NCBI RefSeq assembly: GCF_001457815.1 | Contig: NZ_LN898221.1 | Span: 778,033 to 842,032, forward strand | DNA: 64,000 nucleotides | Direction: 5' to 3' | Source of the DNA: Vitreoscilla massiliensis | GTDB lineage: Bacteria > Pseudomonadota > Gammaproteobacteria > Burkholderiales > Neisseriaceae | Shown here: positions 52,843 to 59,023 of the stretch, piece by piece | Layout: each line of letters begins with the position of its first letter | Position numbering within the stretch: position 1 is the first letter of the stretch | Translations under genes and position numbers: made by a program | The notes under the pieces: generated by a model | The model's database searches: none | Told to the model about the DNA's origin: nothing | The model's input: the letters and a program-made list of their open reading frames with translations, nothing else

Positions 52843-53976
52843 ATGAAGTATTCCACTTTCAGCAAGACCCCCAATAACCAATTATTGGAACCGATGTTTT
52901 TCGGTCAATCGGTGAACATTGCCCGTTACGACCAGCAAAAATACGAAATTTTTGAAAAACTGATAGAAAAACAACTGTCGTTTTTCTGGCGCCCAGAAGA
53001 AGTCGACGTGTCACAAGACCGTTTGGACTACAGCAATTTGCCCGAGCATGAAAAACACATTTTCATCAGCAATTTGAAATACCAAACCTTATTGGATTCG
53101 ATTCAAGGCCGCAGCCCTAACGTGGCTTTGTTGCCCATCGTGTCGATACCCGAATTGGAAACGTGGATCGAAACGTGGTCGTTCTCCGAAACCATACACT
53201 CGCGCTCGTATACCCACATCATCCGTAATATTGTGCACGAACCGTCTACCGTGTTTGACGACATCGTGACCAACGAATACATCATTCGCCGCGCCGAAGA
53301 AATCGCCCAATACTACGATGATTTGATTCAAGCCACGCAACACTACCATTTGTTTGGCGAAGGCACGCACCAAGTCGCTGGCGAAACCATCACCGTGTCG
53401 CTGCGCGAACTCAAACGCAAATTGTACCGTTGCATGATGTGCGTCAACGCCTTGGAAGCCATCCGTTTTTATGTGTCGTTCGCCTGCTCGTTTGCCTTTG
53501 CCGAACGCGAATTGATGGAAGGCAATGCCAAAATCATCAAATTGATTGCCCGCGATGAAGCCTTACATCTCACTGGCACGCAACACATTTTGAACCTGTT
53601 GCGCTCAGGCCAAGACGATCCTGAAATGGCCGAAGTGGCTGCTGAATGTGAACAAGACTGTTACGACTTGTTCAAACGCGCCGCCATGCAAGAAAAAGAA
53701 TGGGCCGAATACCTGTTCAAAGACGGTTCTATGATCGGCCTGAATAAAGACATTTTGGGGCAATACATCGAGTACATCACCAATTTGCGCATGATTGCCG
53801 TTGGCTTACAGCCCGCATTTGAAGGCGCCAACCAAAATCCGATTCCGTGGATTAACGCGTGGCTCTCCAGCGACAATGTGCAAGTGGCACCGCAAGAAGT
53901 GGAATTAAGCTCTTACCTCATCGGTCAGATTGATTCTGAATTGTCGGCCGACGACTTAGGCGATTTCGAGCTGTAA
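52843..53976 (+). CDS. nrdB: Ribonucleotide reductase class Ia beta subunit
   Basis: 377 aa. Di-iron ligands and the tyrosyl-radical region. Its stop overlaps the yfaE start (TAATG). Confidence 0.95.
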
Positions 53977-54281
53977 TGGCCATCATCACCACTTGCGACA
54001 AATCGTTTGCGCTGCGCGAAAACGAAACTCTGCTTGAAGCCCTAGAGCGCACTGGTCACGATGTCGAATACCAGTGCCGCGAGGGCTATTGCGGCTCATG
54101 TCGCACCAAAATCCTCAAAGGCAGCGTCAGCTACAGCGAGCTGCCACTGGCTTTTGTCGGCTCAGACGAATGCCTGCCCTGCTGCTGCACCGTCACCGAA
54201 GACCTCAGCATCGAGGCTTATGCACGGCAAGAGGAGATGTTTGGGGAAAGAGAGGGGCTGTTGGGGGATTTGTTTGAGTAA
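53976..54281 (+). CDS. yfaE: 2Fe-2S ferredoxin YfaE-like
   Basis: 101 aa. CREGYCGSC...C motifs. Confidence 0.85.
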   Translation: MAIITTCDKSFALRENETLLEALERTGHDVEYQCREGYCGSCRTKILKGSVSYSELPLAFVGSDECLPCCCTVTEDLSIEAYARQEEMFGEREGLLGDLFE

Positions 54282-54316
54282 CACAGTTTACAAAATTAAA
54301 TATATGCAACATTAAG

Positions 54317-54973
54317 TTGACGTTTTTTAAATTTAGCAATAAAATTCATCCATCTCTAGCAGCTTTTGGTATTCAATTTATGTACTCTGTAAACAAATTA
54401 CTAAATATAGATGAATCAATATCTAAAAATTTATGCTCGCTGGTCGAAGCTAGATTGAATGAGTTTGAAAATGTTTACATATCAATGAAACATCTCTGTT
54501 CAACTGAGCAAACTAGAGGTACAGCTCGAGTAGATGTTTTAAATCGTGCAATATCAGACTACGCTGACTCAAATGATTTAGTTCAAATTATCGACCCAAC
54601 TAGCAATTTCATATTTAGAATTAATGGCCACGAGTTTAGGACATTAGTCCATTCACTCCATGCAAATCCTCAAACCAAATTAAGCAAAGTAGCAAAATAT
54701 AATAAAAATGAACTCTTACCTTTTGTTGAATTTGAAAATTCAGTTGAAATTATCACTTGGCTTATAGAAGTTGATGATATTTATTTTGAAGATACTGTTA
54801 ATTTCTCCATCTTTATACGTGGATACAATTTAGAAACTCAAGCAATTGTAGCTGAATATAAATATGTACGAGATGAAATGATTTCTACCCCTGAAATTAC
54901 CACCCCATACTCGCCTTCTCAGCCAGTAGTTGAAATTGATAATCCTATTATCTCGTTAAAAAATAGTAATTAA
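54317..54973 (+). CDS. Hypothetical protein (about 200 aa). Very AT-rich. Start may be TTG at 54317 or ATG at 54380
   Basis: Protein-like, no transmembrane helices. Separated from the next gene by 3 bp. Confidence 0.5.
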   Translation: MTFFKFSNKIHPSLAAFGIQFMYSVNKLLNIDESISKNLCSLVEARLNEFENVYISMKHLCSTEQTRGTARVDVLNRAISDYADSNDLVQIIDPTSNFIFRINGHEFRTLVHSLHANPQTKLSKVAKYNKNELLPFVEFENSVEIITWLIEVDDIYFEDTVNFSIFIRGYNLETQAIVAEYKYVRDEMISTPEITTPYSPSQPVVEIDNPIISLKNSN

Positions 54974-54976
54974 ACC

Positions 54977-56068
54977 ATGTCCATACGCATTCACAATGAG
55001 TTTGATAGCTTTATTCCAAATCGTTTGAGCACTTTAAGGCATGCAAACAAACTTTCACTTGATGAAATTGCTTTGAAATTAGAAATTTCAAAGCAATCCA
55101 TTCATCTTTTTGAAACAGGTCAACGCGAGCCAAGTAAATCACATATTGAACAGTTATCCATTTTATTTGGAGTTAAAACTGATTTTTTTTATAAAACAAA
55201 ACAGTTAAGTGATATTCCATTAGAAAAAGTACATTTTAGAAAATTAAAAAGTACTCCTATTTCTTTAAAAAAAACCACTGTTTCTAAATTAGAGCTAATT
55301 AATTTTATAATTGAGAATTTAGAGAATTATTTAAATCTTCCTAAAATAAATATTCCCTATATTGTAAATGAGCATATTGAAAATATTGCATTACAAGCTC
55401 GTGAGCATTGGAAATTAGGACTAGGCCCTATTTCTAATGTCACTCTACTTGCTGAAAGCAATGGCGCATTTGTATTAGAAATGACAGATATCGATACAAA
55501 AGTTGATGCTCTATCTGTATTTAAAGATAACCAACGCCCATTGATATTAAGAAATACTTCTAAAGAATCTCCTTGCCGAAATAGATTCGATATTGTTCAT
55601 GAGATTGGGCATTTGATTATGCATCGATTTATTGAAACTGGAGACAACCTGACAGAAAGCGAAGCAAATTCGTTTAGTGCGGCATTTCTATTGCCAAAAG
55701 AGATTATGCTTACTGATTTCAGTAGGTATATTTTTAGGCGCAGTCAAATCAATTGGGAGTTTCTTTCAGAATTCAAATTAGAATGGAAAGTCAGTAAAGC
55801 TGCCATTTTATACCGAGCGCACAAATTGAATATTATAAGCGATGCACAGTACAAAAGCGCAGTCATCTCATTAAAACGAAAAGGTGAAGCCATTACAGAA
55901 AAAGAAGATTACTTAATCCAACAAGAAAAACCTATGTTAATCTCACAGTGTATTGATTTATTAACCCCCGACTTACTAAACCAGCTCCTGAATGATATTT
56001 CCATGAATAAATCAGCTTTTTATGAATTAATAAACAAAGATTATAATCATGTAATTCAATTCAAATAA
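54977..56068 (+). CDS. Fusion of an N-terminal HTH-XRE DNA-binding domain and an ImmA/IrrE-type (COG2856, HExxH) zinc metallopeptidase domain
   Basis: LSLDEIALKLEISKQSIHLFETGQREPS is an XRE helix-turn-helix. HEIGHLIMH with a downstream E...F block is the ImmA/IrrE family signature. Confidence 0.8.
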   Translation: MSIRIHNEFDSFIPNRLSTLRHANKLSLDEIALKLEISKQSIHLFETGQREPSKSHIEQLSILFGVKTDFFYKTKQLSDIPLEKVHFRKLKSTPISLKKTTVSKLELINFIIENLENYLNLPKINIPYIVNEHIENIALQAREHWKLGLGPISNVTLLAESNGAFVLEMTDIDTKVDALSVFKDNQRPLILRNTSKESPCRNRFDIVHEIGHLIMHRFIETGDNLTESEANSFSAAFLLPKEIMLTDFSRYIFRRSQINWEFLSEFKLEWKVSKAAILYRAHKLNIISDAQYKSAVISLKRKGEAITEKEDYLIQQEKPMLISQCIDLLTPDLLNQLLNDISMNKSAFYELINKDYNHVIQFK

Positions 56069-56073
56069 CATCT

Positions 56074-56102
56074 GTCCTGTAAACCTTACAGGACGCTTTT
56101 TT
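56074..56102 (+). terminator. Hairpin plus T-run built from a degenerate uptake-like motif (GTCCTGTAAACCTTACAGGAC TTTTTT)
   Basis: Same architecture as the host terminators, but GGCC is replaced by GTCC in both arms. Confidence 0.6.
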
Positions 56103-56161
56103 ACCCATCTCTTACCTAAGTTATTATCTCTATCTAGCATTCCCAATAGAAACCATACTCA

Positions 56162-56437
56162 ATGAATCACTCCTCCAAAGACCCCCTCCACGGCAAGAAG
56201 CTTGCCGATATCTTAGACGAATTGCTGGAATACTATGGCGGCTTTGATGGTCTTAGCCGTGAAATCGACATTCGCTGTTTTTGCATAGACCCGAGCGTGA
56301 AATCGTCGTTGAAATTCTTGCGCACCACGCCATGGGCGCGCGAAAAAGTTGAGAGTTTGTATTTGTATGTGTTGCGCCGCCAAGCGCGTGAGCAAGCACG
56401 TGAGCAAGCGGCCTTGCAGCCACCTGAAGCAGAATAA
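56162..56437 (+). CDS. Small conserved protein (91 aa), possibly DUF2132-like. C-terminal REQAREQA repeat
   Basis: Clean ORF followed by an inverted uptake-motif terminator at 56458..56497. Confidence 0.45.
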   Translation: MNHSSKDPLHGKKLADILDELLEYYGGFDGLSREIDIRCFCIDPSVKSSLKFLRTTPWAREKVESLYLYVLRRQAREQAREQAALQPPEAE

Positions 56438-56592
56438 CACCTCATCGCTATCATCAATGCGGCCTGTAAATCACGTTAAGGATTTACAGGCCGCATTAAG
56501 TCTGTGCGCGAAGATGTGCAGACACGTTGTATGCCCCACTACACAACAATCTGCATCACAATATAGATGATTCCAGCTTACAGGCCGCTTTC

Positions 56593-57300
56593 TTACTCCT
56601 CATTTAAGCGGCCTGTAATGCGCATCCACACATAGCACAGAAACAATACCATATTGTTCAGCAGCCATAAGCGCACCCAAGCAAAGCCCAAGCTGGCAAT
56701 GAGCCAAATGGGATAATGCTCAAGCAGCAACAGCCTCACATTGTCACGGTCCAAGGCAGCACCAGCGGTCGCATGGAGTAAGTCCCGCACATGCGTGAGC
56801 GACATTCCCCAAGCCAAGCCCGTGAACAACAGCAAGCAGAACACGCCGATTATCATGCCCCACCATGCAGAGCCCAACATGATGCTGTGAAAACCATATT
56901 CCATATCATTCTTAAAATCAGCATCGTGTTTGAGCGCAAACAACCATGCGCGCACACTTGCCGGCGCCTGTTTTAACATCCAGAAGCCTATGCCCACACT
57001 CAACAGCAAACTGCCGATAAACGCACTCAAGACATAGTAAGAATACAATTGGCTTAAATCACATTGCCCTGAGCGCACCTGCCATCCCAGCAGTCGATTC
57101 ACGCCTGCAAACACAGTCGTTTCACACTGCGCATAAGCACACAGCCATGCGATGCCTTGCAGCAGCAGCGTGCCCCATAACCACGGTTTGACGATGTGCC
57201 AATGCAGGGTCAGGGTCAGTCGCTGGGAAACAGACATGGCTTTGGTGGTTTTCAGCGGCAGCTTGGGTTTTATCATCGGTATGGTTTGCATCGGAGGCAC
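56593..57300 (-). CDS. Integral membrane protein, paralogue A (tandem duplicate of 57337..58062)
   Basis: About 230 aa, 4-5 transmembrane helices, conserved MIKPKLP...CETxxxxxxNRLxGWQ...CDLS...YVWMRITGRL. An uptake motif is read through at the 3' end, encoding ITGRL. Confidence 0.55.
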   Translation of the reverse strand: MPPMQTIPMIKPKLPLKTTKAMSVSQRLTLTLHWHIVKPWLWGTLLLQGIAWLCAYAQCETTVFAGVNRLLGWQVRSGQCDLSQLYSYYVLSAFIGSLLLSVGIGFWMLKQAPASVRAWLFALKHDADFKNDMEYGFHSIMLGSAWWGMIIGVFCLLLFTGLAWGMSLTHVRDLLHATAGAALDRDNVRLLLLEHYPIWLIASLGFAWVRLWLLNNMVLFLCYVWMRITGRLNEE

Positions 57301-57336
57301 CTATGCGTGGCTATATGACGATATCTTATGAGCAAG

Positions 57337-58062
57337 TTACAGGCCACTTTCATGCGCCTGATGCAAGCGGCCTGTAATGCGCATCCACACATAGCTCAGA
57401 TAGATTACGACATTGGCAAGCAACCATAAGCGCAGCAAACCCATGACGATGTGGATGACAAACCAAGTTGGAAAATAATACTCACTCAGCAACAAACCAA
57501 GGTTGTGGCTGTCGATGGCTGCACCTTCGATGTATCCATACCAAGATTTTGGATAATTTAAAGACGCATCAATGCTGGCCATGGTCAAAAGCAGCCACAT
57601 CATAATGGCCAGCAGCACAGCCAAGCAGCGCATCACTCCATCCCAGCGTCCCCAACCCGACAACCAACCATCAGAGGCATATTCCAAGTTCCGCTTTAAA
57701 TCAGGATCGTGTTTGAACCAAAACAACCATGTGCGCACGGTGGCGGGTGCCACTTTCAGCATCCATATGACGGTGCCCACCCACAACAGCAAGCCCAGCC
57801 TGCCAGCGATGAACACTTGGTAACGCAACAAGTGGCTTAAATCACATAGCCCTGTGTACAGCTGCCAACCCATGAGCCGATTCAAGCACACATGCAGCGC
57901 TGTTTCACACTGCACAAAAGCACACAGCCAAGCGATGCATTGCACCAACACCATGCCCAATAACCATGGCTTGCTTACCCGCCAATGCGTGACCAAAGCC
58001 AGAGAGGTGGCCTTAGGTATGGTTAGTGTGTGGGGTTTAATGGGCAATTTGGGTTTTATCAT
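57337..58062 (-). CDS. Integral membrane protein, paralogue B
   Basis: About 45-50% identity to paralogue A by eye. The same C-terminal embedded uptake motif and duplicated downstream segment. Confidence 0.55.
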   Translation of the reverse strand: MIKPKLPIKPHTLTIPKATSLALVTHWRVSKPWLLGMVLVQCIAWLCAFVQCETALHVCLNRLMGWQLYTGLCDLSHLLRYQVFIAGRLGLLLWVGTVIWMLKVAPATVRTWLFWFKHDPDLKRNLEYASDGWLSGWGRWDGVMRCLAVLLAIMMWLLLTMASIDASLNYPKSWYGYIEGAAIDSHNLGLLLSEYYFPTWFVIHIVMGLLRLWLLANVVIYLSYVWMRITGRLHQAHESGL

Positions 58063-58471
58063 CGGTGTGCTCGGTAGCAGGTATCACGGTGTAGCAGCGA
58101 TATGGCATGGACATGGCTGGCTTAAAAAGCAAGTTACAGGCCGCATTAAACTTAAACAAGAGCACTGCCCAAGCACACGACCAACAATAAGTTTGATTCT
58201 TCCTGAGCCTCATCCTCTGCAGCACAGGCTTATCTTATTGTGTACGGTCGCGGCAGCAGCCACACCCAATACCACAAACTGTTGTTTATTCAACACATTA
58301 ATAACATCATCTGCACACCTACCAGCGCTGAAAACCCAGCCAGATGGGCCTGACATTTCTAGGTTAAACAGTTTATAAAGTTTCCAACTCTAAATTGATT
58401 TGCATCAAACCTTGACCATTTCAGATGCATCAAAATACAGCGTTTCCACAAATAAATCATGAGGATATAAA

Positions 58472-59023
58472 ATGCAATTGCTCGTTAATCCAGCCAGCGA
58501 TGCCGATTTTGCAGAGTTTCTCGGTCACAATGGTTTGGCCAATGATAATGTGGCCTGTTTGAAGGCCTTGGCGCCGTTGGTGGCACCGCACATCCCTGCT
58601 TTAACCGAGTCTTTCTACGAACGCATTTTGGCTTCTGATGCGATGAGTCCGTTCGTAGAGGGACGCGTCGATACTTTAAAGCAAACCCACATGCGTTGGA
58701 TGAACATGTTGTTCAGCGGGCCGTTTGACGCCGAATTCGTCAAAATACACCAACACATCGGTGAAGTGCACTTGCGCCAAAAAATTCCGCCCTTGTTTGT
58801 GTCGGCCAGCGTCGCCTTTTTGCGTGCGGAAATGCCAAAATTATTTACACCTGAATTATTGGCCAATGTCCCACAATACGATTACGCCTTTTGTACCTCA
58901 GCGCTGCTGCGCGTATTGGACACGTGCCAATACCTGATAGACTGCACCTATTACAAAGCCTTGATGGAATTGCTCGGCATCTCGCCACAATTGTTCCTGC
59001 GCTTGATGACCACCACCAAGTAA
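58472..59023 (+). CDS. Stand-alone sensor-globin (protoglobin/globin-coupled-sensor-type) domain protein
   Basis: 183 aa. Colinear with the HemAT sensor domain (FYERIL...TLKQTHMRWMNMLFSG..DAEF..I..IGEVHLR..IP). No transmitter domain attached. Confidence 0.6.
   Translation: MQLLVNPASDADFAEFLGHNGLANDNVACLKALAPLVAPHIPALTESFYERILASDAMSPFVEGRVDTLKQTHMRWMNMLFSGPFDAEFVKIHQHIGEVHLRQKIPPLFVSASVAFLRAEMPKLFTPELLANVPQYDYAFCTSALLRVLDTCQYLIDCTYYKALMELLGISPQLFLRLMTTTK

Follow-up and report, generated by a model that had tools for sequence, protein, structure and literature searches.

A probable RosmerTA-type toxin-antitoxin pair behind nrdAB-yfaE in Vitreoscilla massiliensis

Directly behind the genes nrdA, nrdB and yfaE of Vitreoscilla massiliensis, whose genome is about 50% GC, lie two open reading frames (ORFs) of foreign composition, and the locus raises the question of what such a pair does among housekeeping genes. 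The stretch of DNA analysed, referred to here as the window, comprises 64,000 nucleotides of contig NZ_LN898221.1, and the pair, ORF1 and ORF2, ends at position 56068. A preliminary description made from the sequence had read the two genes as a defence or abortive-infection-type module, with a fused helix-turn-helix (HTH) regulator and metallopeptidase beside an uncharacterised candidate effector. That reading agrees with the architecture of RosmerTA, an anti-phage toxin-antitoxin (TA) system in which an antitoxin with an XRE-type HTH and an M78 peptidase accompanies a toxin (Millman et al. 2022 preprint). The pair is very probably a RosmerTA-type module, rmrT-rmrA. It would thus belong to a system that already has a name and experimental precedent, and is less novel than first implied.

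The antitoxin gene and its upstream partner

The downstream gene carries the most direct evidence, and its features are as follows.

54977..56068, plus strand: rmrA (ORF2), encoding a fused XRE-HTH and M78 (ImmA/IrrE) zinc-peptidase of 363 amino acids
55022..55198, plus strand: XRE-type HTH of RmrA, amino acids 16-74 (Pfam HTH_3, HTH_19 and HTH_31, and fold matches)
55487..55819, plus strand: Peptidase_M78 domain of RmrA, amino acids 171-281 (Pfam PF06114, and fold matches)
55598..55612, plus strand: HEIGH zinc-binding and catalytic motif, H208, E209 and H212, read from the sequence (amino acids 208-212)
55267..55274, plus strand: homopolymer of eight adenines (A8) within rmrA

ORF2 is a genuine RmrA, in which an XRE HTH is joined to an M78 zinc-peptidase whose HExxH motif is intact. 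The PADLOC RmrA model PDLC03943 matches amino acids 15-358 of the 363 (E=6.2e-114), and 13 further PADLOC RmrA models match at 1e-32 to 1e-65. Both domains recognised in the preliminary description exceed their Pfam cutoffs, with HTH_3 at amino acids 20-71 (31.9 bits, cutoff 23) and Peptidase_M78, PF06114, at amino acids 171-281 (50.2 bits, cutoff 22; 2.7e-13). The phage family phrog_2439 matches RmrA at 2.5e-100, and a scan with an RmrA alignment turned up 476 confirmed relatives in contigs of viral or prophage origin. The NCBIfam model NF052239 for spr1629 (RipB) reaches E=1e-53, with a score of 182.8 bits that is under its equivalog cutoff of 335. A word-index search returned 757 RmrA homologues at E<=1e-20. 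The members of its own cluster are 98% identical, and the nearest homologue outside that cluster has 48-52% identity. GenBank calls ORF1 a "hypothetical protein" and ORF2 an "XRE family transcriptional regulator".

The residues H208, E209 and H212 of the HExxH motif, together with H216 and E227, are invariant across 19 RmrA homologues. The motif H86-F87-R88 (55232-55240), in the linker between HTH and peptidase, is invariant across the same 19 and could be a candidate autocleavage or pseudo-substrate site. An AlphaFold2 model of RmrA has a predicted local distance difference test score (pLDDT) of 88.4 and a predicted template modelling score of 0.85. By Foldseek, the peptidase part resembles CapP (7t5t, 1.5e-4) and IrrE (3dti, 4.4e-3), and the N-terminal part resembles the DNA-binding domains of ImmR (7t8i), DdrO, SinR and 434 Cro. 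Regulator structures from Mycobacterium tuberculosis are also among the fold matches, none of which is a solved structure that spans the whole of RmrA. No separate XRE repressor gene stands beside ORF2, given that the adjoining genes are ORF1, yfaE and VF530. In the literature RmrA is an antitoxin rather than a sensor, and a sensing role is a supposition.

The upstream gene is co-oriented with rmrA and separated from it by 3 bp, as the preliminary description had it.

54317..54973, plus strand: ORF1 as the longest ORF, 218 amino acids from a TTG
54380..54973, plus strand: rmrT-like toxin candidate, 197 amino acids, soluble, acidic (pI 4.8), with no transmembrane segment
54512..54523, plus strand: motif T45-R46-G47-T48 of ORF1, which aligns with the Y-T-R-G-T motif of the RmrT family (alignment A5)

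ORF1 is a real gene under purifying selection. The ratio of nonsynonymous to synonymous substitution rates (dN/dS) is 0.17-0.23 when ORF1 is compared with two sister lineages and 0.57 when these are compared with each other, at synonymous rates (dS) of 0.11-0.33. The preliminary description of an ORF of about 200 amino acids with no recognisable domain holds as to the domain, because ORF1 has no significant match in Pfam, NCBIfam, PHROGs or PADLOC. Its start needs correction and is probably the ATG at 54380, which gives 197 amino acids, rather than the TTG at 54317, since the TTG lies in the -35 box of a conserved promoter-like site. The ATG is the start used by NCBI and most gene callers. Outside the TTGAC, the -10-like hexamer and the leader described below, the 21 extra codons of the 218-amino-acid version diverge like non-coding DNA.

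ORF1 is also rare. A search of 5.8 billion clusters returned three clusters, all 83-100% identical, and among 1.84 billion representatives, searched exhaustively with a HMMER profile, the cluster of ORF1 itself was the only match. A sequence search of the PDB gave nothing credible (best E 0.039, to fragments of HemS and Argonaute), and a PDB search with the RmrT family profile gave no matches. The UniRef name "BTB domain-containing protein" (UniRef100_A0ABY4DZ23, the 218-amino-acid ORF1) appears spurious, as no Pfam BTB match appears even at E<=1. No mundane metabolic assignment was found for the protein.

The genes that accompany RmrA elsewhere point with high confidence to ORF1 as a very diverged RmrT of the PDLC03929 family, the family of the Escherichia coli E101 toxin, and so bear out the suspicion that the uncharacterised partner is the candidate effector. 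Upstream of the closest RmrA homologues (46-47% identity), at a distance of 2-3 nt, stands an unannotated gene for 193-198 amino acids, and these partner genes match PADLOC RmrT PDLC03929 at 1e-37 to 3e-39. More widely, a same-strand upstream partner of at least 150 amino acids, mostly of 193-216, is found in 74 of the 86 RmrA-homologue loci examined. The 36 unique upstream partners form one BLAST-connected family, and all 8 partners tested match PDLC03929 (1e-24 to 5e-93) and have no Pfam domain. A word-index search with one such partner, from locus L012, found only itself.

A custom hidden Markov model (HMM) was built from the 36 unique partners. It scores ORF1 at 24.2 bits and aligns HMM positions 31-181 with ORF1 positions 30-189. 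Composition-preserving shuffles of ORF1 (n=2000) reach at most 8.2 bits with the same model, and the best of 120 other stop-free stretches of at least 120 amino acids in the window reaches 3.2 bits. Comparison of ORF1 with the partner family by hhalign gives a probability of 85.8% (E=5e-6) over 162 columns. In the reverse direction, partners account for 9 of the 12 top phmmer matches among 748 ORFs, for a base rate of 36/748 (P=1e-10). ORF1 and the RmrT family are 13-21% identical in alignment A5 and share TRGT, FxIxG...R, NPK/Q, a W, an invariant G in "GYN" and a C-terminal P. They are also alike in size, in pI, both being acidic, and in the absence of transmembrane segments, with a maximum KD19 of 0.94 for ORF1 and 1.58 for the family. 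The 3-nt coupling of ORF1 to rmrA is the same in all related lineages.

Expression signals and history of the slot

The composition of the DNA sets the pair apart from the genes on either side, and the sharp drop in GC reported at first is confirmed. GC falls from about 0.50-0.54 to 0.24-0.35 directly past the yfaE stop codon and rises again after about 56100.

50391/50484-52769: nrdA
52843-53976: nrdB
53976-54281: yfaE, 2Fe-2S ferredoxin, with its stop at 54281
54282..56072, plus strand: cargo slot of low-GC DNA, from the yfaE stop codon to the terminator hairpin of the host operon
56162-56437: VF530-family gene, the 3' flank of the ORF pair

By gene, the GC content and the GC content at third codon positions (GC3) are 0.31 and 0.22 for ORF1 and 0.31 and 0.24 for ORF2; for the flanks nrdA, nrdB, yfaE and VF530 they are 0.48-0.56 and 0.58-0.67. 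The signals that may govern expression of the pair, and the hairpin behind it, are the following.

54317..54345, plus strand: sigma-70-like promoter TTGACG-17-TAAAAT, matching the consensus at 10 of 12 positions
54350..54379, plus strand: conserved 5' leader ATCTCTAG[C/T]AGCTTTTGGTATTCAATTT, the 30 nt before the ATG at 54380
56073-56095 (feature annotated to 56102), plus strand: intrinsic-terminator-like hairpin with a T-run

The -35 box of the promoter-like site coincides with the TTG "start" of the 218-amino-acid ORF1. TTGAC is kept in three lineages, and -10-like hexamers (TAAAAT, CATAAT and TATAGT) stand at the same position. The number of promoter-like sites in the region is not above the shuffled expectation, such that TTGACG-17-TAAAAT is a consensus match only. 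Only one of the 30 nt of the leader is substituted among lineages that differ by about 10% in their coding DNA, and from this conservation the leader is a candidate operator or translation-initiation region. There is no terminator-like site between yfaE and rmrT, and read-through from nrdAB is therefore plausible. An Rfam scan of 53800-56700 gave a sub-threshold microRNA match at the next hairpin as its sole match, and a Pfam CusS match (E=0.0079, 16.7 bits against a cutoff of 24.1) was rejected as noise.

The hairpin at 56073 is built on a degenerate copy of a repeated host motif, and in this respect the suggestion of a terminator made from a mutated uptake-like sequence was correct. The motif is a 12-14-mer, AAGCGGCCTGTAAA, with the core CCTGTAAA, and occurs in 43 copies in the window against 1.6 expected; the copy in the hairpin is the sole degenerate one among the 43. 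None of the copies of CCTGTAAA lies inside the cargo slot. The motif often occurs as inverted pairs after genes, for example at 778/799, 15640/15660 and 56463/56483, and it is a DNA uptake sequence (DUS)-like element that doubles as terminator stems in this Vitreoscilla. The hairpin was at first taken to close the inserted unit, and this part did not hold. It is conserved in the sister-lineage contigs L002 and L008 and also in Vitreoscilla stercoraria, downstream of unrelated cargo. The similarity between V. massiliensis and V. stercoraria stops exactly at the TAA of yfaE and restarts at the hairpin. Because V. stercoraria shares the hairpin and has different cargo, the hairpin belongs to the host backbone and not to the inserted unit, and it is probably the terminator of the nrdAB-yfaE operon.

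The horizontal origin proposed for the pair is supported by its foreign composition and its patchy distribution, with the refinement that the acquisition is old rather than recent. The same gene order, nrdA-nrdB-yfaE-rmrT-rmrA-VF530, is seen again in metagenomic contigs from at least two more V. massiliensis-like lineages. Measured against sister lineages, the pair has a dS of 0.27-0.33 and the flanks one of 0.40-0.75, a difference within about twofold. The dN/dS is 0.03 for rmrA, which is as constrained as NrdA and NrdB, and 0.17-0.57 for rmrT. Codon usage is not host-like, with a GC3 of the pair of 0.20-0.26 in every lineage. Synteny and dS in three lineages indicate that the insertion predates their divergence and has not been ameliorated. 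The sequence evidence thus places horizontal acquisition before the three V. massiliensis-like lineages split, followed by vertical retention.

Synteny of the pair with nrdAB is confined to the V. massiliensis-like lineages rather than family-wide. Among the NrdB matches listed, neither gene is at this site in 80 species, V. stercoraria included; these 80 NrdB-derived loci do not include V. massiliensis's own genome. V. stercoraria DSM 513 (L097, 6458-7072) keeps the yfaE-VF530 synteny with a different AT-rich gene in the gap. This gene encodes a protein of 204 amino acids with an N-terminal transmembrane helix and no Pfam or PADLOC match, a candidate single-gene cargo of the abortive-infection type. 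In Conchiformibius kuhniae DSM 17694 (L127, 6445-9503), PsyrT (2e-273) and PsyrA (1.6e-114) follow directly after yfaE in the same orientation. This PsyrTA/RqlHI system is complete and has a GC of 0.37-0.47 against a baseline of 0.57. In Neisseria, a low-GC ORF of 141 amino acids without family match stands right after yfaE (L113, 6632-7057, N. meningitidis; L118). The second of these, a metagenome-assembled genome of an uncultured Neisseria sp. (L118, 6632-8580), has two more small, low-GC, unannotated ORFs of 148 and 158 amino acids before uvrC, also without family match.

From these comparisons the post-yfaE slot seems to receive cargo repeatedly, and to do so without mobility genes. Direct repeats, att-like repeats, tRNA genes and an integrase were looked for at the borders of the V. 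massiliensis slot and none was seen, and there are no other phage or mobility genes at the locus. A further proposal is rather improbable. It holds that in Neisseriaceae the interval from yfaE stop to terminator serves specifically to receive TA-type defence cargo, which is co-transcribed with nrd and has its dosage wired to replication stress or demand for dNTPs, and that RmrT has diverged by sensing or hitting a lineage-specific, possibly replication-linked target. If this were true, the dosage of slot cargo would respond to conditions that a phage infection perturbs.

Elsewhere, such pairs can have other surroundings. One of the closest relatives of the RmrT-RmrA pair (L009, 1-9080) has a PemK toxin, DUF2958/SNF2, a BrnT toxin, a resolvase and a DDE transposase nearby, a mobile and TA-rich setting that contrasts with the housekeeping setting in Vitreoscilla. 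Across 23 representative loci (L009-L094), RmrT-RmrA pairs of this subfamily are usually below the GC of their flanks, with a median difference of -0.04 and a largest deficit of -0.21 in a host of 67% GC. Low GC may be inherent in the module rather than purely a mark of recent transfer.

A second variable segment, of host-like GC, lies at 56593-59023, between VF530 and a gene of the major facilitator superfamily (MFS). It holds two tandem paralogous membrane-protein genes on the minus strand, for 235 and 241 amino acids and without Pfam match, and a gene for a protoglobin-domain protein of 183 amino acids. The sister lineages L002, L003 and L008 lack these genes, and in them the MFS gene stands within about 200 bp after VF530.

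Proposed action and competing explanations

By analogy with characterised members of the system, rmrT and rmrA would be co-transcribed from their own promoter, TTGACG-17-TAAAAT, and would probably also receive read-through from nrdAB-yfaE. Translation of rmrA would be coupled to that of rmrT via the 3-nt gap. RmrA would neutralise RmrT and, through its HTH, autoregulate the operon in the manner of a type II-like TA system, and the housekeeping protease ClpXP may help to hold the toxin in check. Phage infection or another stress would then upset the balance, such that free RmrT arrests the cell in an abortive-infection-type defence. The target of RmrT is more likely cytoplasmic, as for RipA acting on DnaN, than the membrane, as for RmrT-D5 of phage Kita, because the toxin has no membrane segment.

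Several observations count against the RosmerTA assignment or the mechanism drawn from it. The homology of ORF1 to RmrT rests on the custom profile: no curated PADLOC RmrT model matches ORF1 even at E<=10, and a reverse search with an HMM of the ORF1 family against all ORFs of the RmrA loci gave no individually significant match (best E 0.057-2.9). AlphaFold2 on ORF1, run on an alignment of six sequences, gave a mean pLDDT of 40 and hence no confirmation of a fold. The operator search returned short or imperfect inverted repeats only, none convincingly conserved, and no clear palindrome. The locus lies outside any defence island and has housekeeping genes as neighbours. Toxicity, neutralisation and phage protection are projected from RosmerTA members outside Neisseriaceae.

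The integrity of rmrA also varies between assemblies. An independent assembly (Logan, SRR20281129; L001, 8387-8393) has A7 in place of A8 and is otherwise identical to the window over 1.9 kb. The A7 version splits rmrA into an HTH ORF of 104 amino acids and a peptidase ORF of 195 amino acids, and if this frameshift is real, the cell tolerates a split antitoxin, which would also weigh against the assignment. The difference may stem from an error in sequencing or assembly or from a mutation in the strain. Phase variation of rmrA via the A8 tract was rejected as a conserved mechanism, given that the sister lineages have no tract of seven or more adenines there. The length of a T8 tract is invariant across lineages.

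The explanation that best survives beside an anti-phage RosmerTA accepts the same parts and biochemistry and changes the biological role. The pair would be a selfish, addiction-type TA module that has no anti-phage role in this host and is kept through the lethality of losing the antitoxin or through a stabilising effect on the region. Such an outcome has a real if minor chance. The extreme constraint on the antitoxin fits it, as does the long retention of the pair at one chromosomal site without neighbouring defence genes. RosmerTA members do behave as classical TA systems with essential antitoxins: a delta-rmrA mutant was not obtainable (Millman et al. 2022), and rmrA is essential in transposon sequencing of three Pectobacteriaceae. 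Further, pneumococcal RipAB has been discussed in terms of competence and not of defence (PMC12795458). On the other hand, several RosmerTA systems give measurable protection against phages (Millman et al. 2022; Ernits et al. 2023, PMC10440598), and in Conchiformibius the same slot holds PsyrTA, another defence TA system. The toxin protein also evolves about eightfold faster than the antitoxin, with a dN/dS of up to 0.57 between close lineages, which fits an arms race better than addiction.

It is very unlikely that ORF2 acts by itself as an XRE/COG2856 regulator of host genes, of the RamB or PrpR type, beside an unrelated orphan, with no TA pair at all. The GenBank name of ORF2 would suit such a regulator, metabolic regulators of the XRE-COG2856 kind exist, M. 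tuberculosis regulator structures are among the fold matches, and ORF1 has no curated family match. RamB, however, matches RmrA at 0.0066 and in the HTH only, as compared with a full-length RmrA profile at 6e-114, and the conserved partner architecture, the profile homology of ORF1 to RmrT and the 3-nt coupling in all lineages argue for a pair. Least probable of all is a functionless last remnant of a decayed prophage or integrative and conjugative element immunity region, with a fused ImmR/ImmA-like repressor and antirepressor: the phrog_2439 match, the 476 viral and prophage relatives and the foreign composition would agree with it, but at the borders other phage or mobility genes, att-like repeats and tRNA are all lacking, the two ORFs have stayed intact under purifying selection in three lineages at a dS of about 0.3, and such pairs in prophages are RosmerTA cargo rather than the lysogeny switch, the E. 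coli UMNF18 pair being among the accessory genes.

Taken as a RosmerTA module, the pair leaves the current understanding of the system unchanged. It is of some interest for a toxin that curated models do not call, for its long-persisting low GC and for a slot whose cargo varies by genus. Since the curated RmrT models miss ORF1, automated callers of the PADLOC or DefenseFinder type would not report a complete system. Defence callers miss RosmerTA systems whose toxins have drifted past the curated HMMs, here with the antitoxin at 6e-114 and the toxin at nothing, so that RosmerTA counts are underestimates; antitoxin-anchored partner profiling recovers such missed systems. The pair would extend the E. 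coli E101-type RmrT family to Neisseriaceae, and the distant sequence of ORF1 highlights a few conserved positions (TRGT, FxIxG...R, NPK/Q, W, GYN) that are useful for mutagenesis. The slot between yfaE and the terminator would be an example of a defence hotspot free of mobility genes in a housekeeping operon of naturally transformable bacteria.

Relation to known systems

RmrA has been described as an antitoxin with a protease domain and, in many cases, an HTH at its N-terminus; its toxin partners are diverse, and 58% of the pairs have the toxin gene first (Ernits et al. 2023, PMC10440598). The V. massiliensis pair is most like the RosmerTA systems recognised by PDLC03929 and PDLC03943. They share a toxin-first two-gene operon, a fused XRE-M78 antitoxin, a soluble partner of about 200 amino acids without Pfam domain and a GC usually lower than that of the host. 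The window pair differs in that its toxin is missed by the curated RmrT models, its RmrA is at most 52% identical to any outside its own cluster, and it lies on the chromosome, within the 3' end of the nrdAB-yfaE operon rather than in a prophage or defence island.

The nearest experimental precedent is the prophage TA pair E101_02645/E101_02644, in which the toxin makes clpP essential and the substitution T46S relieves this (Rousset et al. 2021). A prophage pair found in 23 complete E. coli genomes matches the partner and RmrA of locus L020 at 99.9-100% identity. E. coli UMNF18 has as its antitoxin WP_000481765.1, which is both the accession listed for E101_02644 and the RmrA of L020 and L175, and as its toxin WP_001179381.1, whose accession number differs by one from that of E101_02645. 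T46 of the E. coli toxin lies in its YTRG motif and aligns with T45 of ORF1, and serine occurs naturally at this position in 6 of 26 family members. The two systems fall in the same RmrT/RmrA subfamily, with antitoxins that are 45% identical and toxins of 197 amino acids. The E101 pair differs in being prophage-borne, with a GC of 0.43, and its toxin is about 17% identical to ORF1.

Two further members act on targets that are not transferable to ORF1. RipA/RipB (Spr1630/Spr1629) of Streptococcus pneumoniae is a Rosmer-family TA system with an XRE and ImmA-like antitoxin, in which RipA acts on the DnaN sliding clamp and ClpX helps to hold RipA in check (Maziero et al. 2025, PMC12795458). The RmrA of the window is under the equivalog cutoff of NF052239 and belongs to a different subfamily. 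RmrT-D5/RmrA-D25 of Gordonia phage Kita likewise has RosmerTA architecture and a toxin of no known family. Experiments have validated it as a TA pair with a narrow spectrum of defence, against two BASEL phages, and its toxin depolarises the membrane (PMC10440598). The Kita toxin has predicted transmembrane regions, and ORF1 and its family have none, which argues against a membrane mechanism of the Kita type.

More distant likeness exists to ImmR/ImmA of ICEBs1, DdrO/IrrE of Deinococcus and CapH/CapP of CBASS, which also combine an XRE HTH with an M78/COG2856 HExxH peptidase. There the repressor is a protein of its own, which a separate protease cleaves in order to derepress a regulon. In the RmrA of V. 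massiliensis, by contrast, the HTH and the protease are fused, and the protein would serve, by analogy with RosmerTA, as the putative antitoxin to the adjacent toxin.

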